Made by a program: the position numbers and the translations under genes. Positions 6,612-64,000 of a stretch of DNA of 64,000 nt are shown here, piece by piece. This stretch comes from an uncultured Odoribacter sp. Its GTDB lineage: Bacteria; Bacteroidota; Bacteroidia; Bacteroidales; Marinifilaceae. The stretch spans positions 3,961 to 67,960 of the forward strand of contig CALUKE010000007.1 in NCBI GenBank assembly GCA_944321165.1, in the 5' to 3' direction. How positions within the stretch are numbered: the stretch's first letter is position 1; the number at the start of each line of letters is the position of its first letter. The notes below the pieces were generated by a model. That model had not been told where the DNA came from, did not search any database, and saw only the letters and a list, made by a program, of their open reading frames with translations.

Positions 6612-6683
6612 GGTCTGTTCGTCTAGGGGCTAGGACGCAAGATTTTCATTCTTGTAACACGGGTTCGATTCCCGTACAGACTA
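6612..6683 (+). tRNA. tRNA-Glu (anticodon UUC)
   Basis: 72 nt cloverleaf that closely parallels E. coli tRNA-Glu (TTCGTCTAG.GGC..AGGAC ... GGTTCGATTCCC). The anticodon loop is TTTTCAT. No encoded CCA. Confidence 0.9.
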
Positions 6684-6694
6684 CAAAGACAGAC

Positions 6695-6766
6695 GGTCTG
6701 TTCGTCTAGGGGCTAGGACGCAAGATTTTCATTCTTGTAACACGGGTTCGATTCCCGTACAGACTA
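6695..6766 (+). tRNA. tRNA-Glu (anticodon UUC), identical tandem copy
   Basis: Base-for-base identical to 6612-6683 and separated from it by an 11 nt spacer. Confidence 0.9.
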
Positions 6767-6797
6767 CTTAAAAAGTTGAATTTTTATATTTGTAGAA

Positions 6798-27198: not shown

Positions 27199-28719
27199 AT
27201 GGATAATTTTTTGCATTATATGTTGCAGGTAAACATTGGGTTGGTGCTGTTTTATATTTTGTACTGGCTCGTTTTTTCGAGGGACACTTTTTTTGTTCTT
27301 CGACGGTGGTGTCTGTTTTTAATGGTGCTGCTGTCTTTCCTTTGCCCAGTCCTTTCTTTTTCTGCCTGGTGGCAGGAGGAGGCAGGGTGGCCGACCTTGG
27401 TGGCGGAGTATGCTGAATTTTGGGCAGAAACCGTTCCGGTGATACCGGAACAACCGGAGCTTCCTTTCTGGCAACAGCTGTTGGTGGGCATCTGGGGGAT
27501 GGGAAGTCTGGCTTTCCTGGGAAGAATGTGTTGGTGGCTCTGGAAAATCTGTTCTTTGGCCAGACGGGGGAAAAAACAGTATTGGCAGGGAGTACCGCTG
27601 ATTGTGCTGGACCGGTGTGCTGCTCCTTTTTCTTTTTTTCAGTGGATTTTTGTGGATCCGGCCCTTCATGGAGAAAAAGAACTGCGGGAAATTCTGCTGC
27701 ACGAATCTGCCCACGTCCGTCAATGGCATTCTTTGGATTTGCTGTGGGGAGAAGGGCTGGTGATCCTTTTCTGGTTTAATCCTGTGGTCTGGTGGCTGCG
27801 GAAAGAAATTCGGCAGAATCTGGAGTTTTTGGCGGATGAAAAAGTGATGACGGCGGGTGGGGACCGGAAAAATTACCAGTATCATTTGCTTCGTTTATCG
27901 AATCCGTCGATCGTACTACCTTTTGTAAATAATTTCAATGTCAAAATTAAAAAACGAATTGTTATGATGAACAAGAAAAAGACTTCCAGATTTGCTACGA
28001 TGAAGTATCTCTTGTTACTTCCGGTAGCCGGATTGTTGATATTGACAGGAAATCTGCAGGCGATGGCCGATTTGACTTTCCCGGAGATATCACTCTCTTC
28101 AGACCAGCATGCTCAACTCTATGAAGGACGGATTCTGGATGAACAACATCGTCCTTTACAGGGGGTGTCGGTGGTGGTGAAAGGACAGACGCAGGGCACT
28201 TTGACCGACCGGCAAGGACAGTTTTCTATCCGAACGGATTCCGGCAATGAATTGGTATTCAGTTATGTGGGTAGAAAAACCGTGTCGGTTGTATGTAAGG
28301 ATCAGTCGAACCTGGGTGATATCGTGCTGGCGGTCCAGGCGGTCGAATTGGACGAGATCGTAGCGATCGGGTATACTGCCGAACAGAAAAATACGGGAGA
28401 AGAGGAAGAAATCTTTGTTGTGGTTGAAGATATGCCGGAATTTGTGCAGGGAAATCTTTCCCACTATCTGGCACAACGCCTCAAATATCCGGCAAAGGCT
28501 CTGGAACAGGGAATTACCGGTCAGGTGCTTGTTTCTTTTGTGGTTGATAAAACGGGTAAAGTGACTCAACCGACCATTGTGCGGAGTGTCGAAAAATCCC
28601 TGGATCAGGAAGCCTTGCGGTTGGTGACGGAAATGCCGGACTGGAAACCTGGAAAACAGAGAGGGGTCCCCGTGGATGTACTTTATACCTTGCCGATTTC
28701 GTTTCGTTTGAATAAATAA
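27199..28719 (+). CDS. M56 (BlaR1-like) metallopeptidase fused to CarboxypepD_reg and TonB C-terminal domains
   Basis: N-terminal TMs and HESAHVRQWH (HExxH). A later TM is followed by YEGRILDEQHRPLQGVSVVVKGQTQGTLTDRQGQF, then a TonB_C-like end (PEF.GG...YLA..L.YP..A...GI.G.V.VSFVVDK.G....P.IV). Confidence 0.8.
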   Translation: MDNFLHYMLQVNIGLVLFYILYWLVFSRDTFFVLRRWCLFLMVLLSFLCPVLSFSAWWQEEAGWPTLVAEYAEFWAETVPVIPEQPELPFWQQLLVGIWGMGSLAFLGRMCWWLWKICSLARRGKKQYWQGVPLIVLDRCAAPFSFFQWIFVDPALHGEKELREILLHESAHVRQWHSLDLLWGEGLVILFWFNPVVWWLRKEIRQNLEFLADEKVMTAGGDRKNYQYHLLRLSNPSIVLPFVNNFNVKIKKRIVMMNKKKTSRFATMKYLLLLPVAGLLILTGNLQAMADLTFPEISLSSDQHAQLYEGRILDEQHRPLQGVSVVVKGQTQGTLTDRQGQFSIRTDSGNELVFSYVGRKTVSVVCKDQSNLGDIVLAVQAVELDEIVAIGYTAEQKNTGEEEEIFVVVEDMPEFVQGNLSHYLAQRLKYPAKALEQGITGQVLVSFVVDKTGKVTQPTIVRSVEKSLDQEALRLVTEMPDWKPGKQRGVPVDVLYTLPISFRLNK

Positions 28720-38269: not shown

Positions 38270-38860
38270 TTATCCGATGAATTTGTTTTTTTGCCACCGG
38301 CCGTTTTCTTGAGTGCCGTCAGCCCAGGTATAACAGCCTTTTCCATGTTTCTGGTTTTTGAACCATTCTCCTGTATACCGGTCGCCGTTAGGCCAATAAT
38401 AGGTGCCTTGTCCCTGTTTTTGATCGTCGAACCATTCGCCTTCATATCGGTCTCCGTCTGTCCAGAAGAAGGTGCCTTTCCCTTGTTTCTTGTCATCGAC
38501 CCATTGCCCTTCGTAGCGATTGCCGTTTGAGAAATAGTAACATCCCTGTCCGTTCATTTTGCCCTCTTCCCATTGACCGACGTATTTATCGCCATTTGCC
38601 CATACATAGCTTCCCATGCCTTGCCTTTGGTTTTCCACCCATTCTCCAGCATATCGGGAGCCGTCTTGCCAGTAATAGGTGCCTTGTCCATGTTTCTGAT
38701 CATTGACCCATTGTCCTTCATAACGGTTGCCGTTGGCATAGGTGTATACTCCCCAGCCGTGCATATTACCGTTGGCCCAGTTCCCTTCGTATTTGTCACC
38801 GTTATTCCACTGATAGCAGCCCTGACCGTGTAGTTTCCCATCGATCACTTCTCCGAAATA
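38270..38860 (-). repeat. 69-nt periodic coding repeats (MORN array)
   Basis: Eight consecutive 23-codon units (YEGQW..D.K.G.G.Y.W..G.R) are seen directly in the translation. The periodicity also creates two long mirror ORFs on the + strand. Confidence 0.8.
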
Positions 38861-39349
38861 GCTGCCGTTGTCAAATTTCAGGGTTTGTTTCTTGACGGAT
38901 TGTGTGTAGGTTTGTGAGTGATCGGTATGAGTGGCGGATGCTCCCAACGGGCGTCCCAGACATTTCTGGAGAGAGGTGACGAGTTCCTGAATGTGATAAC
39001 TTTCAAACGGATAAGCATCGATGCGGTCGAGTTTCAGTAAATGGTAAGTCATATCGCTGGGCCCTAGTTTCTTGGCAATTTTGAATGGAATAATCGTTTT
39101 TTCAAATTCCAGGGCCAGGCTGATTTCATTGGCTGTATTCTCTGAGTTATTGGAATTTTCCGACCAGACAAAAAGCAGAATCTGGCTTTTGTAAACCGCT
39201 TGGGAAATGGCCTTCGCGTAAGAAGTGCCTGTATTGATTTCCTCTTTGTCGATCCAATAAGAAATGCCGGCCTCCATCAGGGCCTGTTTGATTCTTTTTA
39301 CTACTTCTTCGTCCTTTCTCGAATAGCTGATAAATACGTCGTAGTCCAT
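38270..39349 (-). CDS. TIR-domain protein fused to an array of MORN repeats
   Basis: The N-terminus YDVFISYSRKDEEVVKRI...L...GISYWID....I..G......I..A...S.ILLFV.SENS..SE.T.NEISLA is TIR-like. Residues ~164-359 form 8 full and 1 partial 23-aa Y.G.W..G...G.G repeats (MORN). Confidence 0.85.
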   Translation of the reverse strand: MDYDVFISYSRKDEEVVKRIKQALMEAGISYWIDKEEINTGTSYAKAISQAVYKSQILLFVWSENSNNSENTANEISLALEFEKTIIPFKIAKKLGPSDMTYHLLKLDRIDAYPFESYHIQELVTSLQKCLGRPLGASATHTDHSQTYTQSVKKQTLKFDNGSYFGEVIDGKLHGQGCYQWNNGDKYEGNWANGNMHGWGVYTYANGNRYEGQWVNDQKHGQGTYYWQDGSRYAGEWVENQRQGMGSYVWANGDKYVGQWEEGKMNGQGCYYFSNGNRYEGQWVDDKKQGKGTFFWTDGDRYEGEWFDDQKQGQGTYYWPNGDRYTGEWFKNQKHGKGCYTWADGTQENGRWQKNKFIG

Positions 39350-51713: not shown

Positions 51714-51725
51714 CGCCCGTCAATG

Positions 51726-51775
51726 TGGAAAGATTTGGCTGATTGCAACCACAGAAAAAAATTGCTAAAATGCAT
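51726..51775 (+). ncRNA. SAM-II-like riboswitch candidate in the metK leader
   Basis: GGAAAGAUUUGGCUGAUUGCAACCACAGAAAAAAAUUGCUAAAAUGC shares the ordered blocks GAUUU / AUUGCAA / A-rich / GCUAAAA with the SAM-II (metA/metX motif) aptamer as I remember it. It is located upstream of the SAM synthetase gene. Confidence 0.4.
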
Positions 51776-51824
51776 ACACTTCTGAATTCAACCATCCATT
51801 CACTTTCCCGTATATTAATTTCCG

Positions 51825-53195: not shown

Positions 53196-53220
53196 TTCGG
53201 AACAGATAATAGAAAAGATG

Positions 53221-53250
53221 GGGCTGTGTCTTACGACGTAGCCCTTTTTT
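53221..53250 (+). terminator. Rho-independent terminator after metK
   Basis: 10 bp stem GGGCTGTGTC/GACGTAGCCC (two G-U pairs) with a TTAC loop, followed by TTTTTT. Confidence 0.7.
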
Positions 53251-53348: not shown

Positions 53349-53394
53349 TTTAACAAAAAGGCAATAAAAGGCAATGAAAAGATAATGGAATGCC
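53349..53394 (+). promoter_or_regulatory. Cluster-specific upstream motif, copy A (18-mer + decamer repeat + GAATGCC)
   Basis: TTTAACAAAAAGGCAATA (53349-53366), a tandem decamer AAAGGCAATG (53367-53376), then GAATGCC after 11 nt (53388-53394). A -7-like TAAACTTG lies at 53419-53426. Confidence 0.45.
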
Positions 53395-53447
53395 TATAGT
53401 TGTTTCGGGGATTACTCCTAAACTTGTATGAAATAAAAGTGATATTC

Positions 53448-54701
53448 ATGAAGGTTGTTGTAGTTTCCGGGATGGTTGCTCTTTTTGTGTGTCGGTTTAG
53501 GATGCAGGCTTCGGTGATGGCAAGTGTATTGGTCGTTTCTACACTGATGTTTATCGGGATGCTTGGGGTACTTTCTTTGTGGGATAGTGAGCATTTGCTC
53601 GCTTCCCGTTATTTTTTTCAGGGACAGCAAAGAGCGCATTTATCGTCTGCTGTTGTAAAATATTGTCAGGACACTTCTTTTTGTATCGGTTTCGGACAGG
53701 ATACCTCCCTGATGCTTTTTCCCGGACTGTTGAGCTCGGAAGTCGGGTTTTGCCGGAAACGCTGGGGATTGTATGAAACATTGGTGTTGATGGCCGGTGA
53801 TGAGAAAAAATGTTGTCTGATGGGAAAAGCAGATGAAGGTTACAGCCGGGCTGCCCTGTATCTTCCGGAACGGCGGCGTACGCTTTCGATTGCGGGTAAA
53901 AGCCAGGTAACAGGGAAGTTGTATATTGGAAGTCAGGGTGTCGCTTATACACAGCTAAGATCGAAATTTTTCGACGGCACGCCTATTGCACCTTCCGACA
54001 TCTGCCGGAGCGGAGAAACGCTTCCGCCGCCGGCTCCTGAAATCATCGCTTATGTCAGGGAATTGTTCCGATGTGCTACAGAGGAATGGCCTGAGGCGGA
54101 AAGCTTCGGACAGGCTACGTTTGCCGGTCCGGTAGAATATCGTCGGATCGGACAGGAAATTGGAACGATGGAATTGGCAGGTCCTTATGTGTTATGTTCT
54201 ACCGATTCGCTATATATCCGAGGCGATTGCCGGTTAAGGGGAGTTATCATTGTTGCTGGGAAAGTGTGCATTGGCAGCGGTTTTCAGGGGGCGGTACAGG
54301 TTTTTGCCCGGGATGCTATTTGGCTTGAAGAACGAGTTGTTTTACAGGCTGGATCAGGATTGTGGGTGAACGGTGGCACTCCTCGGCGTTCGGTTCGGCT
54401 GGAGGAAAATTGTCGGGTGGAAGGTTATATCGTGGTGGCGGGGAATACGGAACGGTCGGAGTCTCCATATGCACATTACTATCAACCGGCTTCTGCCGAG
54501 GTGAAGGGCTTGGTGTATATTGACGGAATTGCCGATGTGCAGGGAGTTGTCGAGGGAAGCCTGTATGCCGGAGAACTTTATCATTTTGCACCCGAAGGAT
54601 ATTATGCTGATTTGTTTTGCGACTTATCAGTCAGCCGTTCTCCAGGTACGGTGTATCCGTTTCTGATGAGAGGACCGGTAGAAAGGAGGGAAATAAAATG
54701 A
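53448..54701 (+). CDS. GspK/PilX-like N-terminal anchor fused to a bactofilin-like beta-helix region (hypothetical)
   Basis: The start is uncertain (TTG 53400, ATG 53448 or ATG 53502). The hydrophobic N-terminus RMQASVMASVLVVSTLMFIGMLGVLSL resembles the PilX_N/GspK anchor without Glu+5. The C-terminal half has repeated V.G.V.V.G strands (GKVCIGSGFQGAVQVFA.., VEGYIVVAGN, GLVYIDGIADVQGVVEGSLYAG). It overlaps the next gene by ATGA. Confidence 0.5.
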   Translation: MKVVVVSGMVALFVCRFRMQASVMASVLVVSTLMFIGMLGVLSLWDSEHLLASRYFFQGQQRAHLSSAVVKYCQDTSFCIGFGQDTSLMLFPGLLSSEVGFCRKRWGLYETLVLMAGDEKKCCLMGKADEGYSRAALYLPERRRTLSIAGKSQVTGKLYIGSQGVAYTQLRSKFFDGTPIAPSDICRSGETLPPPAPEIIAYVRELFRCATEEWPEAESFGQATFAGPVEYRRIGQEIGTMELAGPYVLCSTDSLYIRGDCRLRGVIIVAGKVCIGSGFQGAVQVFARDAIWLEERVVLQAGSGLWVNGGTPRRSVRLEENCRVEGYIVVAGNTERSESPYAHYYQPASAEVKGLVYIDGIADVQGVVEGSLYAGELYHFAPEGYYADLFCDLSVSRSPGTVYPFLMRGPVERREIK

Positions 54702-55057
54702 GAATGGAAAAGTCTGTCTGGAGGGCCTCTTCCTTACCGGAATGTGTCGTAGCTTCTGTCATCCTGATGACGGTTTTCTTGTTGTCAGTAGAGATTCTTG
54801 TCCGACTGGCGGGTAAAGTGGAAGAACAGGAATCTGTTGTGGCTTTATCGGCTGCTTTGCAGGAGGGATTGTACGAACTGGATGACGGTGCTCATGTCGA
54901 GGGAGACTATACTTTTATTTATGGGGAGATCCGGGTAGAAGCTTCTCTATCCCTGTACGATGACCGTATTCAGCAACTTGTACTGACGGCTTGGCCGGAG
55001 CGGGGCGGTAGTTGTGTCAAACGTTACCATTTAATCCGAAAAGCAGATGGACACTGA
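54698..55057 (+). CDS. Minor (pseudo)pilin with degenerate class III signal
   Basis: ATG 54698 gives MRMEKSVWRA/SSLPECVVASVILMTVFLLSV, with Glu at +5 after a small residue followed by a hydrophobic helix. 119 aa, GspI-like in size. Confidence 0.6.
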   Translation: MRMEKSVWRASSLPECVVASVILMTVFLLSVEILVRLAGKVEEQESVVALSAALQEGLYELDDGAHVEGDYTFIYGEIRVEASLSLYDDRIQQLVLTAWPERGGSCVKRYHLIRKADGH

Positions 55058-55481
55058 TTCTATACCGGCATGGACATTACCGGAACTGTTGATTGTTATG
55101 ATTTTGTCCGGTCTTATTTTTTTAGCTGTGTTAGACGCGACCAATCTTGTCGGGCGTTTTTCCGTTTATCTCACGGAACGCTGGAGGCGTACGGAAGGAG
55201 AGCTGTCTGCCTGTTGTCAGTTGGATGAACTGATAAGCCGTACCGACAGTATTGTCGTACAGGATGTTGGTTTACAACTTTATTGTCGGGATACTCCCTT
55301 GGCTGTTTTGCAGGTGTCCGATGACAGTCTGTTGTGTTGTGATTACCGGAATAGAGAAGATACCTTGTTGCGCTGTGTGGAAAAGATGACGCTACATGGG
55401 GATACTTTGATTTTACAATTTTGCCATCCCCGGGGGAAAATCCGGTATCGTTGGAATATTCATAGAACTGTATGGCCATGA
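55047..55481 (+). CDS. Minor (pseudo)pilin with prepilin-type N-terminal signal
   Basis: MDTDSIPA/WTLPELLIVMILSGLIFLAV, with Glu at +5. 144 aa. It overlaps both neighbouring genes. Confidence 0.65.
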   Translation: MDTDSIPAWTLPELLIVMILSGLIFLAVLDATNLVGRFSVYLTERWRRTEGELSACCQLDELISRTDSIVVQDVGLQLYCRDTPLAVLQVSDDSLLCCDYRNREDTLLRCVEKMTLHGDTLILQFCHPRGKIRYRWNIHRTVWP

Positions 55482-56530
55482 GCAGGAATGTTAAACCTTT
55501 GAAAGAATCGAAGAAAGAGATGTTGTTTTCCGGATTGCATGTTTTGTTGACTGCCGGATTGGATTTCAGCCATTCTTTCCGGTTATTGATCGAGGAAGAA
55601 AAAGAGGAGAAAATTCGTTTACTGTTGAAAGAAATTTACGCTTCGGTGGTTGCTGGGAATACGTTGAACGAAAGTTTTGCCCGAAGCAGGCAATTCGGTG
55701 CATTGGATTGCGGTGTGTTGCGTATTGGGGAAGAGACGGGGCGTATAGCCGAAGCATTGGTTTTCCTGGCGGATTATTATCGTAAGCGGATCGAACAGCG
55801 TCGGATGATTTCGGGTGCGGTAAGTTATCCGCTTATCATCTTGGTGACAGCCTTGGTTGTTTTGGTGTTTATGGTTACTGTCATTGTGCCTATGTTCGAG
55901 CAGGTATATGCCCGTATGGGCAGTGAGCTGCCCTGGCTGACACGCCGGATTATCATTTTTTCACGTTACATGCCAAGCATATTGTTGGGAATGGGAGGAA
56001 TAGCCACAGTTGTTGGCTGTTGTTTTTATCATTGGCGTAAATGCAATGCTGTGCAGGCTTTTCTGGCTGCCGTGATATTGAAGTTGCCGCTTATTGGTGC
56101 GGTGGTCCGGCAGAATCAGCAAGCTCGGTTTTGTAAATTGCTCCGATTGCTTTATGGTTCCGGCGTACCCTTGTTGCATGCTTTGGAATTGTTGCGGGAC
56201 ATCATTACTTTTTATCCTTACAGTCGGTCTTTTGGTGTGATTGGGGAGGAACTTCGCCGGGGTGGTTTGTTTGCTGCCGGATTGGCTCGCTTCCCGCATA
56301 TATATGATCGTAAACTATGCGCTCTACTCCGTGTGGGAGAAGAAACAAACCATCTGGGAGAGATGTTGGGACGTCAGGGAGATATGCTTACCCGGGAACT
56401 CGAACATCGGTTGAAACAATTGGGTGGTTTTCTGGAACCTGTGTTGATTTTGGGTGTGGGTGGATTGGTTGCCTTGGTGTTGATTGCTATGTATTTGCCA
56501 ATGTTTAAATTAGGGAGTACGATCGGATAA
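55472..56530 (+). CDS. Type II secretion / type IV pilus platform protein (GspF/PilC family)
   Basis: 352 aa with two T2SSF-like repeats (L..G..L..SF........G....L..IGEE.G.....L and LL..G.PLL.AL.....I..............L..G......L and LLRVGEETN.L..ML) and three TM segments. Confidence 0.9.
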   Translation: MAMSRNVKPLKESKKEMLFSGLHVLLTAGLDFSHSFRLLIEEEKEEKIRLLLKEIYASVVAGNTLNESFARSRQFGALDCGVLRIGEETGRIAEALVFLADYYRKRIEQRRMISGAVSYPLIILVTALVVLVFMVTVIVPMFEQVYARMGSELPWLTRRIIIFSRYMPSILLGMGGIATVVGCCFYHWRKCNAVQAFLAAVILKLPLIGAVVRQNQQARFCKLLRLLYGSGVPLLHALELLRDIITFYPYSRSFGVIGEELRRGGLFAAGLARFPHIYDRKLCALLRVGEETNHLGEMLGRQGDMLTRELEHRLKQLGGFLEPVLILGVGGLVALVLIAMYLPMFKLGSTIG

Positions 56531-56704
56531 TCCGGTTAATTGCGATATTTTCTGTTTTTATATCGGTTGTTCTGCAAATGAAGGCATTCATTCGTGGAAT
56601 ATGTATATCTCGTTGATGAAAATGGATGGTAAGTTTGTAAAATTCATTTATCATAGTTAATGTTAATAGTGGTAATAAAAACTTAACTATTGACAATAAA
56701 CTGT

Positions 56705-57379
56705 ATGAAAAAAATTATCATTGTCGAGAAAAGAGCGGTAATCGCGAAAGAGATTCTGAAAGTCGTGAAAATAAGGGACTACAAGGTGGAAGTAGTGGAA
56801 ACCAATGCCGATGCTTTCCTGTATTATGATTCCGGTCAGACAAAAGCCATTGTGTTGGAGAATAATTATGACGGATTGTACCGGATTTTACGGCGGATTC
56901 GCTTGGAAGACCGGAAAACGGTCATTTTTGTGAAAGGACAGCCTATGGCGGATGAGGAGATTGAAATGGTTCTCGGTGAAGGGGCTGACAACTACATTAC
57001 TCATTTTACTTCCCGTGAGCTGAAAGCTTATTTACAGGCTTGGTTTCGTTATGTCGACTGGCAAGAAGAAAAAGAATATGTATTGAACGAGCGGGTACAT
57101 TTGGTCGTTGCCTCACAGCGGCTGTTTCTTCCCAGCGGGTCTCAGCTCTTGAGTGAATGTGAATTCCGGGTACTCGAACTTTTAGCCCGGAATAAAGGAA
57201 AAGTGGTTGCTTACGAGGAGTTGATCGGAATTTATTGGTTTGAATATAATGTCGATACGAAAACTTATTTATGTAAATGTGTGCGTCGGCTGCGTCATAT
57301 TTTGGGAGAAGATTCGGCTTTGACGATTACGAATGTATACAAGCGTGGGTATATGCTTGAAGACATAGATGTTTTTTAA
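56705..57379 (+). CDS. OmpR/PhoB-type winged-helix regulator with degenerate (pseudo-)receiver domain
   Basis: ATG 56705. The C-terminal Trans_reg_C pattern is present (LSECEFRVLELLARNKGKVV..EELI...W........TK.YL.KCVRRLRHIL.......ITNVYKRGYML). The N-terminal CheY-like fold is present but key residues are replaced (see findings). Confidence 0.75.
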   Translation: MKKIIIVEKRAVIAKEILKVVKIRDYKVEVVETNADAFLYYDSGQTKAIVLENNYDGLYRILRRIRLEDRKTVIFVKGQPMADEEIEMVLGEGADNYITHFTSRELKAYLQAWFRYVDWQEEKEYVLNERVHLVVASQRLFLPSGSQLLSECEFRVLELLARNKGKVVAYEELIGIYWFEYNVDTKTYLCKCVRRLRHILGEDSALTITNVYKRGYMLEDIDVF

Positions 57380-57410
57380 CAATAGGGCAATAGATTGTCA
57401 TCAGAATGCC
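57375..57410 (+). promoter_or_regulatory. Cluster-specific upstream motif, copy B (18-mer + GAATGCC)
   Basis: TTTAACAATAGGGCAATA (57375-57392; 16/18 identical to copy A), then GAATGCC after 11 nt (57404-57410). A -7-like CTACCTTG lies at 57445-57452. Confidence 0.45.
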
Positions 57411-57474
57411 ATTGGAACGTCAATACTTATCCGAAGGATTGTATCTACCTTGTGAAGGATAAAAACTGAATGGT

Positions 57475-57885
57475 ATGAATATGAATCTGAAACGGAAATG
57501 GCAGGCTTTTTCCTTACCTGAATTATTAGTCGTGTTAGTGATTATTGGCATTCTGGTGCTGATTGCTTTGCCTAATCTGATGCCGCTGATTTCCAAGGCC
57601 AAGAGTATGGAAGCGCAACAACAGCTGGTTTTCCTGCATACGCTGGAAAAAAGTTATTTCTATATCCGGTCGCGTTATTCCGCTTCGTTGGAAGAAGTCG
57701 GTTTCGAGCATGCCCGCTTGGTAACGGAAGGAGGAAATGCCAATTACCGCATTGAAATTGTATCGGCCGACGAACGGGGATTCCGGGCGACGGCCACGGC
57801 TGTCGTAGATTTTGACGGCGATGGTGTATACAATGTCTGGGAAATCGACCAAGACAAGGAGTTGAAGGAAATTACCAAAGACTGA
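57475..57885 (+). CDS. Major type IV pilin / GspG-like pseudopilin
   Basis: MNMNLKRKWQA/FSLPELLVVLVIIGILVLIALPNL is a classical prepilin cleavage/methylation domain with Glu+5. 136 aa. Confidence 0.85.
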   Translation: MNMNLKRKWQAFSLPELLVVLVIIGILVLIALPNLMPLISKAKSMEAQQQLVFLHTLEKSYFYIRSRYSASLEEVGFEHARLVTEGGNANYRIEIVSADERGFRATATAVVDFDGDGVYNVWEIDQDKELKEITKD

Positions 57886-57890
57886 CGGCG

Positions 57891-58346
57891 ATGGAAATGT
57901 TTTTATTGTGGCCTTTGTTGGTATTGATTCGGTCTGATTTTCGGGAACGGCAGGTCGAAGTTGCGACCCTTTTGGTTTTCGGCGGCATCCAATGGGGTAT
58001 CTGTCTGGTGGAGTCAGGAATAACGGTTTTTACAGAGAGGGTACTGGAAAATCTCTTGCTGTTGGCACTTTGGGGAATGGGTACAGGCATTTGGTTTCGA
58101 TGGCTGCGGTCCGGCAGGAAAAGTGTTTGTACAGGATGGATTGGAAAAGGAGACGTAGCTTTTCTAGTGTGTTTCCTACCGGTTTTTTCTTTGCGGGCCT
58201 TTCTGGTTTTTCTGTTGGTGTCATTCGGTATTTCGCTGATATATTGGCTGATATCAAGGAAAGGCTCATCCTTCACCATACCGTTAGTCAGTATGATGGG
58301 AATTTGTTATTTACCTGTTTTATTTTTTCGGATGTATGGATACTGA
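57891..58346 (+). CDS. Short A24-family prepilin peptidase (TadV/CpaA-like, no methyltransferase domain)
   Basis: 151 aa polytopic membrane protein. The two aspartate motifs are IRSDFRERQV and GKGDVAFL (the GxGDxK-like box). Confidence 0.65.
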   Translation: MEMFLLWPLLVLIRSDFRERQVEVATLLVFGGIQWGICLVESGITVFTERVLENLLLLALWGMGTGIWFRWLRSGRKSVCTGWIGKGDVAFLVCFLPVFSLRAFLVFLLVSFGISLIYWLISRKGSSFTIPLVSMMGICYLPVLFFRMYGY

Positions 58347-59709
58347 ATTATGTATTGTGACGGAGGTTCTGGATCGGCTTCCGGCGTCTGAAGCCTGGGA
58401 ATATCGGGTAGTACCCTGTGCTTTTCGTGACAAGGTATTGGTTTGTTATGGAGAAGAAGGCCGTGATTATACGCAGGTGATGGAGGAACTGGAAGTATTG
58501 ACTGGAAACGCTCTTGTTATCGAGCCGATAGCACCGGAAGAATTCCGCCGCTTAATTCATCGCTGTTATCGGAAAACCGGTAGAGAGTCAACGAAACAGA
58601 TCGCCATGGGACATTCCGGTTTTTTGTACGATTTGATCGAGGATGCTTATCGGAATTATGCCAGCGACATTCATTTCGAGCCCTACGAGCATATTTGTCG
58701 GGTGCGTTTTCGCATTGATGGGCAACTGATCGAACGGCATGTCGTTGAGAAAGGAAATTATGCATCGGTGGTCAATCAGATCAAGATTCTGGCGAATTTG
58801 GATATTTCCGAGAAACGTCTGCCGCAGGATGGCCGTATTTTTTATCACCATGGCGAGGCCCGTTTCGATGTGCGGGTTTCTGTGCTGCCGGTTATTCACG
58901 GAGAAAAGGTGGTGTTGCGGTTACTGACCCGTCATGCCGAATTGCTGGAATTGGGCAACTTGGGGTTCGATGCGCGCCAGTTGAGGGATTACCTGGGGGC
59001 AGTCCGTAAGCCGCATGGTTTGGTGCTGATATGCGGACCTACGGGTTCGGGGAAGAGTACTACTTTATATGCCACTCTTCGTTTATTGAATGAGATAACC
59101 CGGAATATTCTCACCATTGAAGATCCGGTGGAATATACTTTGGAAGGGGTGAATCAGGTGCAGTTGAGAGAAGATATCGGACTGACTTTTACGGCAGCTT
59201 TGCGGACATTTCTGCGACAGGATCCCGATATTGTCATGTTGGGAGAAATCCGGGATGCCGATACCGCACAGATGGCGATTCGCAGTGCCTTGACGGGACA
59301 TCTGATTCTTTCGACGATTCATACCAACAGTGCTTGGGGATGTGTGTCCCGGTTGACGGATATGGGGGTACATCCTTATCTGATTGCCGATACCCTGGTT
59401 TTGTGTGTAGCCCAGCGTTTGGTGCGTCTGTTGTGTCCGCATTGCAAAGTGCCCCGGGAGGACCGGCACGGTTTCCGGGCTGTGGGTTGTGAGGCATGCT
59501 ATGATACAGGATATGCCGGACGGAAAGCCATATATGAAGTCTTGCCTGTCGATGATCGGTTGGCTTCCGCTATCCGGAGAACGGAAGAGGTAACAGTCGA
59601 TCCGGAGCGTTTGGGAATCCGTACGTTGCGCTCATCGGCTCTCGAATTGGTGGAGCAGGGCTTGACCTCCTACGAAGAAGTGTTGCCTTTATTAAACGAA
59701 TGCTTATGA
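58336..59709 (+). CDS. GspE/PilB-family secretion ATPase
   Basis: 457 aa with a T2SSE_N-like N-terminus, Walker A GPTGSGKST, Walker B DPDIVMLGEIRD, His box LILSTIHTN, and a tetracysteine motif CPHC..(17)..CEAC. Confidence 0.9.
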   Translation: MDTELCIVTEVLDRLPASEAWEYRVVPCAFRDKVLVCYGEEGRDYTQVMEELEVLTGNALVIEPIAPEEFRRLIHRCYRKTGRESTKQIAMGHSGFLYDLIEDAYRNYASDIHFEPYEHICRVRFRIDGQLIERHVVEKGNYASVVNQIKILANLDISEKRLPQDGRIFYHHGEARFDVRVSVLPVIHGEKVVLRLLTRHAELLELGNLGFDARQLRDYLGAVRKPHGLVLICGPTGSGKSTTLYATLRLLNEITRNILTIEDPVEYTLEGVNQVQLREDIGLTFTAALRTFLRQDPDIVMLGEIRDADTAQMAIRSALTGHLILSTIHTNSAWGCVSRLTDMGVHPYLIADTLVLCVAQRLVRLLCPHCKVPREDRHGFRAVGCEACYDTGYAGRKAIYEVLPVDDRLASAIRRTEEVTVDPERLGIRTLRSSALELVEQGLTSYEEVLPLLNECL

Positions 59710-61592
59710 ATAGAAAAAAATGGCTCGCTGCATTGTTGCTTGTCTGGATGGCAACAATAACTCTCAATGCCCGCCCTCCTCAGGATTCATTGAGATTGGA
59801 AACGATCGGCCGAAGATTGGATTCGTTACTCTTGGTTGATCCTGCGTATGGGACGGAGATCGACCTTTCGGCGGGCAAATTGCCCTTGGAGGAATTGTTG
59901 CGGAATGTGGCCAGGGCCAATGGGGTGAATCTGTGTGTAAAAACCGGTAAACATCTGCTTGTGACCTGCCATTTTAAACGGGTTCGGGTGATAGATTTGC
60001 TTGCGTATCTCTGCCGGGAATATCAGTTGGAAATCGAGGTGGTCGGGAATATTGTTTCCGTATGCGATCCCCAACCTTTGCCTACGCCACCGCCGGTAAT
60101 TAAGGTCGGATACGACAGCCTGAGACGGGAATTGTCGTATGATTTGCAAGGGGAGGGGTTGGTGGATGTCGTGCGTGAGATTGTTCAACTTACCGGTGAA
60201 AAGATTGTCATTCCTCAAAATCTGTATGGTCGGCAGGTGTCCGGATTTATCAACGGGCTGCCGGTTCGTGAGGCGATAGAGGCATTGGCGGTGTCGAATG
60301 GTCTGGCGGTAGAACATCGGGATGGGAAATACTGGAATTTGTTGGCGGGAGAGGGGACGGCTTCGGACAGAACGGTTTCTTTCCAGCCCCGGCATTTTTT
60401 TACTGCCGACCAGGTTCGGGTGGACAGTACCGGTAAAGTTACCGTCTCGATTCAGCGCGGAAACATTCAGGATATTGTTACCGAAGTATGCAGGCTGGCG
60501 GATCTCGATCGGATGTTCCTGGCGCCGCTTAACCGGGAGGTCTCCTTGTATGTACGCAATGTCGATATTCCTTCGCTTTTCCATGTGTTGTTTGCGGGGA
60601 CTCCTTTCCTCTTTCAGGAAGTGAACGGCGTTTATCTTTTCGGAGCTCAGGATCAGCAGAAAACCTTGCGTACTACGGCTGTCATTCCCTTGCGCTACCG
60701 GACGGTGGAAAATGTACCCGATTTGATTCCTGAAGTCTTGAAAGCCGACATGCAAATCGGTGCTTTTGCCGAACAAAACAGTCTCATCGTATCGGGCAAT
60801 AGCCGGCAGATTGCTTCTCTCCGACAGTTTATTGAATCAATCGACCAGACGGTGCCACTGATTACCATTGAAGTCTTGATTGTCGATTCGAAGAAAAGCA
60901 GCCTTCGGGAAGCCGGAATAACGGCTGGTTTAGGAGAAAAACCGATAAAGACGACCGGAAGTTTCAGTCCCGGGGTGGATTTTTCCTTATCTGCGGCATC
61001 CATCAACCGCTTGATCAACAGTTTTAACGGTTTCGGCAGTATAAATCTGGGGAAAGTGACGCCTAATTTCTATTTCACGTTGAAGGCATTGGAAGAGGCT
61101 GGAACATTGGAATTGCGTTCTACTCCTAAATTGTCCACTCTGAACGGACATGAGGCGAGCTTGAAGAGTGGGGAAACCCGTTATTACAAAGAGGTGCAGA
61201 ATAACATCATGGGTACGCAGAATCCCATTCAGTCCGAATCTTATAGCTGGAAGAGTACGGAGGCCGATTTAAGTCTGAAAATCGTCCCTTATGTTAGTAG
61301 TGACGGGAAAATCACCCTGACGATCGAAATCGAACAGAGTGAGTTTACTGCCCGTGAAGAGAAAGACGCTCCTCCGGGGACGGCTACCCGCAGTTTTAAA
61401 TCCCGGATTCGGGTGGATAACGAGGATATGGTGCTGTTGGGCGGTATTGATCGCAATACCCGCGAGAAGGGGTCCAGCGGTTTGCCGCTGGTTGCCCGGA
61501 TTCCGCTGTTGAAATGGTTGTTCGGTGTGTCCACAGATAATAAGGTGGATGAAAAGTTGAGCATATTTATTAAACCGACAGTGATATTCTGA
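59700..61592 (+). CDS. Secretin (GspD/PilQ family outer-membrane channel)
   Basis: 630 aa with a signal peptide and N-domain repeats. The C-terminal secretin core has LRSTPKLSTLNG..A....G and ends ..SGLPLVARIPLLKWLFG....(n)..L.IFIKPTVI. Confidence 0.9.
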   Translation: MLMNRKKWLAALLLVWMATITLNARPPQDSLRLETIGRRLDSLLLVDPAYGTEIDLSAGKLPLEELLRNVARANGVNLCVKTGKHLLVTCHFKRVRVIDLLAYLCREYQLEIEVVGNIVSVCDPQPLPTPPPVIKVGYDSLRRELSYDLQGEGLVDVVREIVQLTGEKIVIPQNLYGRQVSGFINGLPVREAIEALAVSNGLAVEHRDGKYWNLLAGEGTASDRTVSFQPRHFFTADQVRVDSTGKVTVSIQRGNIQDIVTEVCRLADLDRMFLAPLNREVSLYVRNVDIPSLFHVLFAGTPFLFQEVNGVYLFGAQDQQKTLRTTAVIPLRYRTVENVPDLIPEVLKADMQIGAFAEQNSLIVSGNSRQIASLRQFIESIDQTVPLITIEVLIVDSKKSSLREAGITAGLGEKPIKTTGSFSPGVDFSLSAASINRLINSFNGFGSINLGKVTPNFYFTLKALEEAGTLELRSTPKLSTLNGHEASLKSGETRYYKEVQNNIMGTQNPIQSESYSWKSTEADLSLKIVPYVSSDGKITLTIEIEQSEFTAREEKDAPPGTATRSFKSRIRVDNEDMVLLGGIDRNTREKGSSGLPLVARIPLLKWLFGVSTDNKVDEKLSIFIKPTVIF

Positions 61593-62602
61593 TGAAACGG
61601 AGCAATGGATTTTTGGGGTTGTTGAACCGTTTTGCGGTGGTGGTAATCACTTTGAAAAAGGAGGCTGATCCGGATGTCGTGTTTTACCGGGGATGCTGGA
61701 AGAAAAGGAGGGTATGTCTGGAGCCGGTCGACGGTATACAGCCGGAGCGATGTCCAGTATTGGTGTTGTTTACCGGATATGGAGTGATTGTGAAAGATTG
61801 TACCGGGAAGATCGACTGGGCCGGAAGAGTGACGACGGGAGACGAATTTTTATGGGAATGGAAAGATGTGGGGGAAGAGCGTTTGTTGGTGTTTCTGCGT
61901 CGGGAAGGGGTTCGGCCGTGGTTGGAAAAATGGGAGGAAGAAGGATGGGCCGTGGCCGAAGTATCTCTGTCGGCGGTAGTCGATATTCCGGTTCTGGAAG
62001 CGTGGATTGAGCAAACCTACCGACATTGGCGGACATGGAGATATTGGCGAAAGGTCAGGAAAGAGCAGCAGGTGATTGCCACCCTTTTGTTGAAGCGCTT
62101 AAAGTGGCCCATACTTCTGTCGCTCCTGCTTTTGTCTGGTATCGGTTATCCCTTGCAAACAGCTTTACGACGGCAGGTTTTGCAACAGCAGGAGGAGTTG
62201 TCGTTATGGCAACGGAAGATACAACTGCGTCGGGATGAGGAGGAAAGGGCCGGAAGAATGTCGCGGATGCTGACCGGAAGTGGAAAATTGGCTCCGCTGT
62301 TCGATCGGATTGCTGCCGCAGTGCCTCGGGGGGTTACTCTTGTTCGCTTGGAGGCGAATCCTCCCGAACGGCGGGTAGAAACGGGTAAGCCTTTGGTTGT
62401 GAGGGATGGGTGTGTAATGGTGGAGGGTTATACCCGGGAACCGGCCGATGTGGCTATGTTTACGGAAAATCTGTCTGAGGCAGGCCGTTCATGGCGGGTG
62501 ATGCTCGAAGGATTGGATCGTAGGGTGGAAAAGGCGGATTTCACTTTCCGCATCAGTATTGTATGGCGAACAGATAAAGGACGGGAATATGAAGCAGAAT
62601 AA
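61592..62602 (+). CDS. Bitopic assembly-platform protein (GspL- or PilN-like)
   Basis: 336 aa: a ~175 aa cytoplasmic part, a TM (WPILLSLLLLSGIGYPL), a coiled-coil, then a ferredoxin-like end (PRGVTLVRLE...VMVEGYT....DVAMFTENL......V.L). The start overlaps the secretin stop (TGATG). Assigned from architecture only. Confidence 0.5.
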   Translation: MKRSNGFLGLLNRFAVVVITLKKEADPDVVFYRGCWKKRRVCLEPVDGIQPERCPVLVLFTGYGVIVKDCTGKIDWAGRVTTGDEFLWEWKDVGEERLLVFLRREGVRPWLEKWEEEGWAVAEVSLSAVVDIPVLEAWIEQTYRHWRTWRYWRKVRKEQQVIATLLLKRLKWPILLSLLLLSGIGYPLQTALRRQVLQQQEELSLWQRKIQLRRDEEERAGRMSRMLTGSGKLAPLFDRIAAAVPRGVTLVRLEANPPERRVETGKPLVVRDGCVMVEGYTREPADVAMFTENLSEAGRSWRVMLEGLDRRVEKADFTFRISIVWRTDKGREYEAE

Positions 62603-63089
62603 TTATCGGTATGGAAAAATCGGTCTGGCAGCCTTGCTGTTCGGATTGCCTTTCGTGCTTTGGTTTGGTGGTGGAAGACAGCTTGTTTCTTTGTGGCAAG
62701 CCAGCAAACGGAACGGGGCGGAGTTGCAGGAACTGCGGCAATGTCGTGATACGTTGGGCGATACGTTGGCCGTTTATCTGAAAAAGGGAGCCTGGTTGCG
62801 TGACGGTCGTTTGTTGGAACGGGTTCGACAATGGGGAGAAGTACGTGGAGTGACGGTGATCGGTTATACTCCCTGGCTGAGCGGTGAGGATCGGGGATGG
62901 AAACTTTACACGGCCGAACTCACCTTGGCAGGGGGATTTCTGCCGATGTTGGAGGTGTTGGATGCTTTGGAACGGGAAGGGGAAGGAATGAGGCCGGTGG
63001 CAGCCAGTTTCCGTTTGCATGCCGATGCCCGCAATCGGGAGAGACAATTACAATTGACTTTATGGATACAACAAATTACGGAAGAATGA
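62589..63089 (+). CDS. GspM/PilO-like assembly protein
   Basis: ATG 62589 (MKQNNYRYGKIGLAALLFGLPFVLWF), a single TM, a coiled-coil and an alpha/beta domain. 166 aa. Assigned from architecture and position only. Confidence 0.45.
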   Translation: MKQNNYRYGKIGLAALLFGLPFVLWFGGGRQLVSLWQASKRNGAELQELRQCRDTLGDTLAVYLKKGAWLRDGRLLERVRQWGEVRGVTVIGYTPWLSGEDRGWKLYTAELTLAGGFLPMLEVLDALEREGEGMRPVAASFRLHADARNRERQLQLTLWIQQITEE

Positions 63090-63475
63090 AAACAAAACGA
63101 ATGAAAACCTGGATACTGTTCTTAGCGGGAGCAGTGTCGTTTCTGTCGGGTTGTGACGATATTTTCGAGCCTGACCTGACGGGATCTTCGGTCAGGCTGA
63201 TTGCTCCCGGCGACAGTGTGACTACGAAGGTGGCGCGGCAATTGTTTCTGTGGGAAGCGTTGGACGGGGCGATGGCTTATCGTTTGCGGATAGCGACTCC
63301 GGATTTCCGCCGGCCCGAAGCCTGTCTGCTGGATACATTGGTGGCGGGGTGCCGCTATGAATATACTTTTCAGCCGGGGGTATACACTTGGGGTGTACGG
63401 GCCGAAAATTCAGTCTGGACAGGGGAATATGCCGTTCGCCTGTTGATTGTCTCACCTTTGGCTGAAGAACCATGA
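63086..63475 (+). CDS. Small lipoprotein (possible pilotin or accessory component)
   Basis: ATG 63086 overlaps the previous stop (ATGA). It has the lipobox AVSFLSGC and a ~110 aa beta-rich domain. Confidence 0.5.
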   Translation: MKTKRMKTWILFLAGAVSFLSGCDDIFEPDLTGSSVRLIAPGDSVTTKVARQLFLWEALDGAMAYRLRIATPDFRRPEACLLDTLVAGCRYEYTFQPGVYTWGVRAENSVWTGEYAVRLLIVSPLAEEP

Positions 63476-63939
63476 ACGGCTTGCAAAACCGGAAAACCGT
63501 CGCCGTGCTCCTTGTGTTGGCGACAGGACTTTGGGGAGGGATTCTCTGGCGGTTGGTACGTTATGCCGGTGAAGGGAAAGCGGTAGTCCCGGCATTTTCG
63601 CCGCCTTCACCGGTGGCTCCGGTAATAAAAGACACGTTACGCTTGAACTATCGTGATCCTTTCGTCGAAGTCCTGCCGGAGCCTGATCGTTCGGAGGTAA
63701 AGCCGGTACGGGTACTCGAGCCTGTGCGAACTTCTCCCATACCGGAAGAGCCTCCTTCTTTTCGTTTGTCCGGAATCATCCGAAAAGGAAAAAAAGATTT
63801 TCTGCTGTTCGAATACCCGGATGGGAGTGTACCGGTTTGGGAAAAAGGAACGGTAGACGGATATACGGTCGGAAAAATCTATACGGACTCTGTGGTGGTA
63901 CGTAAAGCCGGCCGGTGTTACACGCTTATGTTAAACTAA
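63472..63939 (+). CDS. PilP/GspC-like protein (TM, Pro-rich linker, small beta domain)
   Basis: N-terminal TM (VAVLLVLATGLWGGILW), a proline-rich linker, and a C-terminal FRLSGIIRKGKKDFLLFEY.DG....V.EKG.V.DGYTVGKI..DSVVV pattern like the PilP / GspC HR domain. Confidence 0.45.
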   Translation: MNGLQNRKTVAVLLVLATGLWGGILWRLVRYAGEGKAVVPAFSPPSPVAPVIKDTLRLNYRDPFVEVLPEPDRSEVKPVRVLEPVRTSPIPEEPPSFRLSGIIRKGKKDFLLFEYPDGSVPVWEKGTVDGYTVGKIYTDSVVVRKAGRCYTLMLN

Positions 63940-63950
63940 AATGTACGCTT

Positions 63951-64000
63951 ATGAAAAAAATGTGTTTTTTATGGCTCTTTATGGGCTTTGTGATGATGGC
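63951..64000 (+). CDS. Start of a further gene (signal-peptide-like N-terminus), truncated by the window end
   Basis: ATG 63951 gives MKKMCFLWLFMGFVMM.., 12 nt after the previous stop. It probably continues the operon. Confidence 0.3.
   Translation, partial: MKKMCFLWLFMGFVMM

Follow-up and report, generated by a model that had tools for sequence, protein, structure and literature searches.

The locus discussed here lies at 53.4-64.0 kb of a 64,000-nucleotide stretch of DNA from an uncultured Odoribacter sp. (contig CALUKE010000007.1), a stretch that we call the window, and it encodes a type IV filament machine. Its closest described relative is the "putative T2SS" (type II secretion system) of Cytophaga hutchinsonii, encoded by chu_3191-3202 and described by Wang et al. 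2017 (PMC5553014). Cytophaga mutants in the secretin, platform and pilin genes are impaired in cellulose use and adhesion, their cellulose-bound outer-membrane proteins are altered or lost, and their motility is unaffected (Wang et al. 2017, PMC5553014). Table 2 of the same paper includes Odoribacter splanchnicus, with genes Odosp_1522-1529, and clusters are also listed for F. johnsoniae and Pedobacter. Denise, Abby and Rocha 2019 (PMC6668835) report that the Bacteroidetes "so-called T2SS" always branches with the type IVa pilus (T4aP), away from the true T2SS; their models do not recognise the Bacteroidetes system, which they see as a possible novel independent secretion system derived from T4aP.

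The locus of the window is a complete outer-membrane-spanning type IV filament machine, and it belongs to this Bacteroidota-specific, T4aP-derived "T2SS-like" kind, whose presence in Odoribacter is already on record. What is new here is the tight coupling of the machine to pairs of Sec-dependent Rhs toxins that resemble the TcB and TcC proteins of the Tc toxins. The reading that we favour, still unproven and to which we give even chances, is that the machine is a secretion machine of the Cytophaga T2SS-like kind, with the neighbouring Rhs pair as its likely cargo, in the service of interbacterial antagonism.

Gene content and closest relatives

The locus holds 13 complete co-oriented open reading frames (ORFs) on the + strand, followed by the start of a fourteenth (Table 1): the complete ones are 12 intact type IV filament genes and one regulator gene. 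Every gene listed in an earlier note on this sequence is present, intact and on the + strand. The start/stop overlaps that it read as ATGA and TGATG are real, with lengths of 1 to 14 nucleotides within each block; the first minor pilin gene, for example, starts at 54698 with an ATGA that overlaps the stop of the preceding gene. The inventory that it described also stands: a single ATPase that carries a tetracysteine motif, a small pilin, a large one that lacks glutamate at position 5 (Glu5), and bitopic alignment proteins. It saw no PilT or PilU, and there is no second ATPase or PilT-like gene in the window or within 10 kb of 72 related loci, each of which, flanks included, carries exactly one ATPase. 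The two blocks of genes that it recognised are both there, but it overlooked the OmpR-family regulator gene between them, at 56690-57379, and the TcB/TcC-like Rhs toxin cassette in which the operon ends: the gene truncated at the window edge, with its start at 63951, had been taken for a further machine gene, and is in fact the first gene of this cassette.

Table 1. Features of the locus, with positions in the window; an arrow within a motif marks the cleavage site
Feature	Positions	Strand	Evidence and remarks
Large pilin-like protein, 417 aa (amino acids)	53448..54701	+	hydrophobic N-terminal helix without Glu5, pilin-type sheet, C-terminal beta-helix
Minor pilin, about 119 aa	54698..55057	+	motif RA↓SSLPE, Glu5 present
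Minor pilin, 144 aa	55047..55481	+	motif PA↓WTLPE, Glu5 present
GspF/PilC-type inner-membrane platform, 352 aa	55472..56530	+	Pfam T2SSF 6.7e-48, two repeats
OmpR-family winged-helix regulator, degenerate receiver	56690..57379	+	Trans_reg_C 2.1e-11; probable start ATG 56705
Major pilin or pseudopilin, 136 aa	57475..57885	+	motif QA↓FSLPE, Glu5 present; N_methyl 3.3e-6
Short A24-type prepilin peptidase, 151 aa, without methyltransferase domain	57891..58346	+	Peptidase_A24 0.012
GspE/PilB-type assembly ATPase, 457 aa	58336..59709	+	Pfam T2SSE 3.5e-125
Secretin, 630 aa, signal peptide	59700..61592	+	Secretin 2e-35, Secretin_N 7e-9, STN sub-threshold
Bitopic alignment (L-like) protein, 336 aa	61592..62602	+	cytoplasmic N-terminal domain of ~165 aa, one transmembrane helix, PilN-like periplasmic domain
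Bitopic GspM/PilO-position protein, 166 aa	62589..63089	+	N-terminal transmembrane helix by inspection; conserved position
Small lipoprotein, 129 aa	63086..63475	+	lipobox LSGC; conserved position
Bitopic GspC/PilP-like protein, 155 aa	63472..63939	+	putative C-terminal HR-type domain; T2SSC 0.042
X, first 17 codons in window	63951..64000	+	full protein of 1286 aa, Sec signal, predicted TcB-like YD shell

The same 12 machine genes recur, usually as one array, in 80 Bacteroidota loci, which are the best 80 of at least 600 secretin-matching stretches found in a scan of species-representative genomes (573 stretches were confirmed). Fifty of these loci form a host-associated Bacteroidales clade and 30 an environmental one; they come from Odoribacteraceae, Rikenellaceae, Proteiniphilum, metagenome-assembled genomes labelled Prevotellaceae or Bacteroides, and environmental Bacteroidota that include Marivirga, Owenweeksia and Marinifilum. 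The usual array reads pilin, peptidase, ATPase, secretin, L-like, M-like, lipoprotein, C-like, beta-helix pilin, two minor pilins, platform; the window departs from it in that the last four genes are placed upstream. Most loci of the environmental clade (L057-L086) have an extra conserved ORF of ~190-260 aa between the C-like and beta-helix pilin genes, and two Alistipes loci (L045, L047) have several extra ORFs of 184-346 aa, with no family assigned, that separate the ATPase gene from the secretin gene.

In gene set and gene order, the window matches the published description of chu_3191-3202. Both systems have a pilin, a short A24 peptidase, an ATPase, a secretin, three or four PilN/O/P-like genes, and a platform with divergent minor pilins, and in both the block of platform and minor pilins lies upstream of the pilin gene. 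Relatives from the Cytophagales (Marivirga, L068) have the same gene order and a secretin 37% identical to that of the window. The differences are threefold: the window has an OmpR-like pseudo-receiver regulator between the blocks, its operon ends in a TcB/TcC-like Rhs cassette that is unmentioned in Wang et al. 2017 (PMC5553014), and its host is a gut anaerobe with no cellulose use. As for O. splanchnicus, its locus tags from Odosp_1529 down to 1522, with 1523 skipped, fit the series pilin, peptidase, ATPase, secretin, L-like, M-like, lipoprotein, C-like. One protein of the window, an RND pump, shares 93% identity with the O. splanchnicus protein; the window thus comes from a close Odoribacter relative. 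The earlier note had held that no such system is characterised in Bacteroidales: we too found no functional study of such a machine there, nor anything relevant on O. splanchnicus secretion beyond Wang 2017 and Denise 2019, but the same kind of machine is known from Cytophaga and listed for O. splanchnicus.

A toxin cassette at the end of the operon

The fourteenth gene, which we call X, starts 11 nucleotides after the last machine gene. Metagenome contigs that are 99.8-100% identical to the window extend past its edge (for L001, the identity is 99.84% over 10.5 kb), and what they show beyond 64 kb is the cassette, not machine genes. Twelve nucleotides after X comes the gene of a 1545-aa DUF6443-Rhs toxin (DUF6443 2.9e-39, RHS_repeat, and YD-shell matches on record), then an Imm40 immunity gene (7e-14), then an orphan Rhs tip. 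This tip, at positions 19705-20468 of L001, is a C-terminal fragment that carries a domain of the TNT type (tuberculosis necrotizing toxin-like NADase), an arrangement typical of Rhs toxin-tip displacement. Sec signal peptides are found on X and on Rhs, as on every full-length relative inspected, and wherever the sequence extends past X a DUF6443-Rhs gene lies 3' of it almost without exception.

The C-terminus of X consists of YD repeats, which match Rhs proteins of the PDB with E-values down to 5e-10. X has no Pfam domain above threshold, the matches to SpvB and TcdB_midN being sub-threshold, and a PDB profile search with the N-terminal 90%, outside the YD repeats, returns no sequence match. 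Homology to TcB was therefore not found by sequence, and the case for a TcB-like fold rests on predicted structure. We modelled a homologue of 1188 aa, 38% identical to X, from an alignment of 54 sequences (pLDDT 84.6, pTM 0.84): Foldseek matches the model to Rhs/YD (TcB) shells at E ~1e-16 and to the SpvB N-terminal domain at 8.6e-4. The best TM-scores are 0.24-0.28 to TcB chains, against 0.08-0.11 to Rhs proteins that belong to type VI secretion systems (T6SS). Since all of these scores are low, the TcB-like reading of X should be taken as a fold-level resemblance, with homology unproven.

This resemblance extends to the organization of the pair. In the BC cocoon of Tc toxins (YenB-YenC, TcdB2-TccC3), a large YD-shell protein whose N-terminal domain is SpvB-like is followed by a shorter protein with an Rhs core and a variable toxin at its C-terminus, and the X-Rhs pair has the same layout, X being the putative shell protein. 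The differences are that both X-Rhs proteins have Sec signal peptides, that an immunity gene, Imm40, is present and implies a bacterial target, that the N-terminal domains of the Rhs partner are DUF6443 and Ig-like, and that the sequence matches to TcB stay below threshold. Large TcA-like genes are absent from the flanks of X-Rhs in all of about 170 loci. The X genes or X-Rhs modules sometimes stand in tandem, as at L096 (5939-13936), or in L157 and L174, each with two modules in a row, and in L007 there is an X on both sides of the machine.

Linkage of the cassette to the machine

We looked at the linkage from both ends. In the secretin-first sample, formed by the 80 loci above, X or Rhs lies at most three ORFs from the machine border in 27 of the 50 host-associated loci, and 46 of the 252 ORFs at flank positions 1 and 2 (about 18%) are X or Rhs. 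The X-first sample consists of 80 loci from a metagenome scan, 47 of them with at least 5 kb of upstream sequence: the machine is directly upstream of X in 23 of the 80, and in 14 of the 47. The association is strong in both directions, and it is not obligate.

The position of the cassette relative to the machine varies. In at least five arrangements X-Rhs closes the operon on its 3' side, namely after the platform, C-like, L-like, secretin or M-like gene, and in other loci it stands divergently upstream of the pilin gene; the gaps between machine and X are mostly 25-127 nucleotides. When the X proteins are clustered at 50-70% identity, each cluster is either consistently linked or consistently stand-alone, and at 35% identity most of the 34 clusters contain machine-linked proteins.

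A possible secretion mechanism

From the gene inventory, the family membership given by synteny, the linkage and two protein folds, we infer secretion, the identity of the cargo and a piston, in the following steps. The short A24 peptidase would cleave the pilins at an Ala/Gly↓xxLxE site. The 417-aa beta-helix protein without Glu5, together with the two minor pilins, would prime a short filament built from the 136-aa major pilin; the filament would assemble on the GspF/PilC platform, powered by the single zinc-binding GspE/PilB ATPase. The L-, M- and C/P-like proteins would couple the assembly complex to the secretin, and the small lipoprotein may join them. The filament, as a piston or a short surface fibre, would then move folded, Sec-exported periplasmic proteins across the outer membrane. 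Among these proteins would be the X-Rhs pair, and the machine would serve interbacterial antagonism. The pair is a plausible cargo because it is Sec-exported, because no other outer-membrane route is evident for it, and because it is fused to the operon here, with an 11-nucleotide gap.

Several points weigh against this reading. Linkage is weak in the environmental clade, where X or Rhs lies at most three ORFs from the machine border in only 5 of 30 loci, and about 70% of X-Rhs modules stand alone, with no machine at the locus. In 10 of 10 loci from seven X homologues on long contigs there is no machine within 10 kb, and our confidence in the cargo idea is lowered accordingly. Many stand-alone modules share another upstream context, formed by an S24/LexA-like repressor, Lin1244_N, a HU-HIG protein and a DUF6486 ORF of ~32 aa (loci L087, L088, L093, L094, L120-L123, L134-L144 and L176). 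Size raises a further difficulty: a closed cocoon of the BC type may be too wide for the secretin lumen, if a folded TcB-TcC-type cocoon is about 10 nm wide, as we take it to be from published Tc structures, and X or Rhs by itself, at 140-170 kDa, would rank with the largest T2SS cargo known. A retraction ATPase could also be encoded elsewhere in the genome, beyond the locus. Finally, we found no experiments in the literature that show secretion by such a machine in any Bacteroidales, and the Cytophaga phenotype concerns cellulose use, not toxins (PMC5553014).

The stand-alone modules with the shared context are probably from Bacteroidaceae. Bacteroides sensu stricto is usually reported without T2SS. 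The S24/LexA-like repressor hints at control of the SOS or mobile-element type. Downstream of stand-alone modules are arrays of ORFs of 150-300 aa, possibly immunity genes or orphan tips.

Some of these observations suit another explanation, in which a general T2SS-like system exports other cargo, for instance enzymes that degrade glycans or surface proteins, as in Cytophaga, and the mobile, recombinogenic Rhs cassette is a passenger that gathers at a permissive site and has no functional tie to the machine. Most X-Rhs modules are indeed stand-alone, linkage is rare in environmental relatives, and the orphan Rhs tips and downstream arrays of small ORFs show ongoing rearrangement; the cellulose phenotype of Cytophaga (PMC5553014) points the same way. 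Three points count against a passenger. The share of X or Rhs among the first two flanking ORFs is far above a chance level that we roughly guess to be well under 1% for random genes. The adjacency recurs after independent rearrangements of the machine, which is always on the 5' side of X, often co-oriented with it and separated from it by short gaps. Lastly, it spans X proteins that are only about 20% identical to each other. We consider a mobile passenger unlikely, though worth keeping in mind, and prefer to see the Rhs pair as cargo.

Type II secretion, pilus or competence

The next question is which of the well-studied systems the machine resembles most. No component reaches an NCBIfam equivalog cut-off for a T2SS, T4aP or Com system: the scores and cut-offs, in bits, are 138.9 and 351 for GspD, 467 and 630 for GspE, 199.9 and 424 for GspF, and 28.5 and 88.85 for GspG. 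The ATPase scores almost equally as GspE (467 bits) and PilB (454 bits), both below the cut-offs. It has a Walker A motif and a zinc-binding tetracysteine motif, C367xxC...CxxC388, as the earlier note had stated.

With the proteobacterial T2SS (Gsp/Pul/Xcp), the machine shares a single tetracysteine ATPase, a GspF platform, a small major pilin of pseudopilin size, a large minor pilin without Glu5, a secretin, a putative HR-domain protein of the GspC/PilP type, and a Sec-dependent candidate cargo. It differs in that it has three minor pilins, not the four GspH, I, J and K, with no match to GspK; in that its L-like protein combines a small cytoplasmic domain with a PilN-like periplasmic part; and in that published trees place the Bacteroidetes system with T4aP (PMC6668835). 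The judgement, made in the earlier note, that the machine is closer to a T2SS is right for the inventory, but these trees side with T4aP and no equivalog cut-off is reached.

The affinity with T4aP leads to a second alternative, a true surface type IV pilus used for adhesion, biofilm formation or twitching: its retraction ATPase would be encoded elsewhere, the beta-helix protein would serve as an adhesin at the tip, and the pilus might carry the Rhs pair and deliver it in a contact-dependent way. Besides the reported phylogenetic grouping (PMC6668835), the machine shares with T4aP the N-terminus of a PilA-like pilin, a PilB-like ATPase, PilC, PilN/PilP-like proteins and a PilQ-like secretin. 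The best NCBIfam match of the major pilin is Myxococcus PilA, at 3e-15, and, as in T4aP, this pilin has a class III signal peptide with Glu5 and an A24 peptidase is encoded at the locus. The alignment proteins give T4aP-type matches: weak PilN signals for the 336-aa protein (0.017 in Pfam, and 0.19 for the family profile against the PDB PilN 3jc8), and, for the family profile of the 155-aa protein, PilP 2ivw and 4av2 at 0.003, with OutC 6hcg at 0.0037. The beta-helix pilin weakly resembles a Thermus tip pilin, ComZ, and Cytophaga mutants lose adhesion to cellulose. On the other hand, the machine is compact, in one or two operons, with a pilin of GspG size, a peptidase that is short and without the methyltransferase half, and a secretin without AMIN domains (Pfam); neither PilT/PilU, in the window or within 10 kb of the 72 loci, nor a separate PilM is seen; and the Cytophaga mutants keep their motility. 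In other bacteria pilT genes are often unlinked, so that a PilT gene may lie outside the locus. We find the surface pilus quite unlikely as the role of this machine.

Still further down, and rated least likely, is a pseudopilus for DNA uptake, which we regard as very improbable and reject as a candidate. What speaks for it is a ComP_DUS score of 22 bits on the pilin, below the cut-off of 27.3, weak ComG-family matches, and the weak fold resemblance to ComZ; every one of these matches is below threshold. No ComEA, ComEC or DprA gene is linked to the machine in the window, whose conserved neighbour is a toxin cassette and not a set of DNA-processing genes. Moreover, Riemerella, the one genetically dissected competent member of the phylum, requires no pilin, ATPase or secretin genes for competence.

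Components of the machine

The 417-aa protein is a candidate tip or priming subunit. It has no Pfam or NCBIfam match, and its family comprises 1572 clusters at 50% identity (E ≤ 1e-3), nearly all of them with 400-420 aa. The AlphaFold2 model, computed from an alignment of 60 family members (pLDDT 94.1, pTM 0.88), has a helix at residues 22-74, a small sheet and a C-terminal beta-helix. A Foldseek search of the model against the PDB returns nothing at E ≤ 1e-3, the weak best matches being ice-binding beta-helices at 0.012 and ComZ, a large beta-solenoid minor pilin of Thermus, at 0.017. The protein had been described as a GspK/PilX-like anchor fused to a beta-helix: the shape without Glu5 is there, but identity with GspK or PilX is unsupported, and we reject GspK in the absence of a sequence or fold match to it.

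The pilin family has the cleavage site A↓xxLxE, with Ala at position -1, not the usual Gly, in 62 of 77 ORFs of major-pilin size. Both small minor pilins merge with the major-pilin family in iterative profile searches; taken singly, the first has a weak match to ComGE (NCBIfam), and the second a weak match to the prepilin N-terminus, at 0.067. All 24 aligned orthologues of the peptidase keep the catalytic residues D16 and D88, the latter within GxGD. The secretin has at least 732 homologues, labelled GspD or PilQ in their sources.

The gene of the 336-aa L-like protein always lies 3' of the secretin gene in related loci. The M-like protein and the lipoprotein have no database match; the position of the M-like gene is kept in 63 loci, and the lipoprotein has ~320 aa in the environmental clade (L057-L086), against ~130 aa here. 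The nearest named homologue of the L-like protein, a partial sequence with 80% identity, is annotated as Alistipes indistinctus, whereas the housekeeping genes point to Odoribacter, a mismatch that suggests a binning or naming problem, or a transfer of the locus.

Regulator, composition and surroundings

The regulator between the two blocks appears to have a pseudo-receiver: its Response_reg score of 18.9 bits is below the cut-off of 30.2, and inspection of the receiver shows replacements at the acidic pair, at the phospho-Asp, and at both the Thr and the Lys. A Bacteroidetes -7 promoter motif, TAAGTTTG, is found at 56630, 5' of the gene. Only the species of the window and Gabonibacter (L007) have the gene, in every case immediately upstream of that for the pilin.

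The four distal machine genes had appeared by eye to be richer in G+C and in Arg and Trp, and the computed composition bears this out: their G+C content is 0.52-0.54, against 0.464 +/- 0.032 for the window, and their proteins contain 8-12% Arg, against 5.2%, and 3-4.5% Trp in three of the four (2-4.5% across all), against 1.4%. The horizontal origin that had been suggested on this ground does not follow. Their G+C at third codon positions, 0.51-0.55, is ordinary, within 1.2 standard deviations of that of the window genes (0.496 +/- 0.050), and several housekeeping genes are higher; the extra G+C stems from proteins rich in Arg and Trp.

The surroundings of the machine are those of an ordinary chromosome, with genes for DnaJ, a ComM-like protein, an RND pump, TonB-dependent receptors, GH20, GH2, KdtA and MetK. 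Upstream of metK is a SAM-II long-loop riboswitch (51719-51778, + strand, 65.8 bits), and after metK comes a terminator formed by a hairpin and a T-run, at about 53220-53250. Three other features of the window can be mentioned. A gene at 38270-39349 (- strand) encodes an N-terminal TIR domain (2.5e-23) and seven MORN repeats, and its product may be a defence or NADase-type protein. At 27199-28719 (+ strand), a BlaR1-type M56 peptidase region, a CarboxypepD_reg domain and a TonB C-terminal domain are fused. At 6612-6767 (+ strand), there is a tandem pair of tRNA-Glu(TTC) genes, 10 nucleotides apart and with equal Rfam scores.

Conclusions

Accounts of export across the outer membrane in Bacteroidota usually centre on the type IX secretion system, the T6SS and vesicles. 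The machine described here is widespread, with at least 573 secretin stretches and 1572 clusters of the beta-helix pilin, yet the single genetic study of it concerns a soil cellulose degrader. In the literature, we found no explanation of the route by which Bacteroidales pass Sec-dependent Rhs toxins through the outer membrane, and nothing relevant on Rhs in connection with T2SS or type IV pili in Bacteroidota, on DUF6443, or on TcB/TcC in Bacteroidetes. The linkage brings two questions together: the role of the machine in gut anaerobes, and the exit route of the Rhs pairs.

A bolder conjecture, tentative and in our opinion on the unlikely side, is that Bacteroidota use the T4aP-derived machine specifically to export or deliver two-part Rhs cocoon toxins that are Sec-dependent and TcB/TcC-like, with the beta-helix tip pilin or the pseudopilus in the role of TcA or VgrG/PAAR. 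If this were true, the machine would be a previously unrecognised delivery route for polymorphic toxins, and gut Bacteroidales would have a new weapon in addition to the T6SS.

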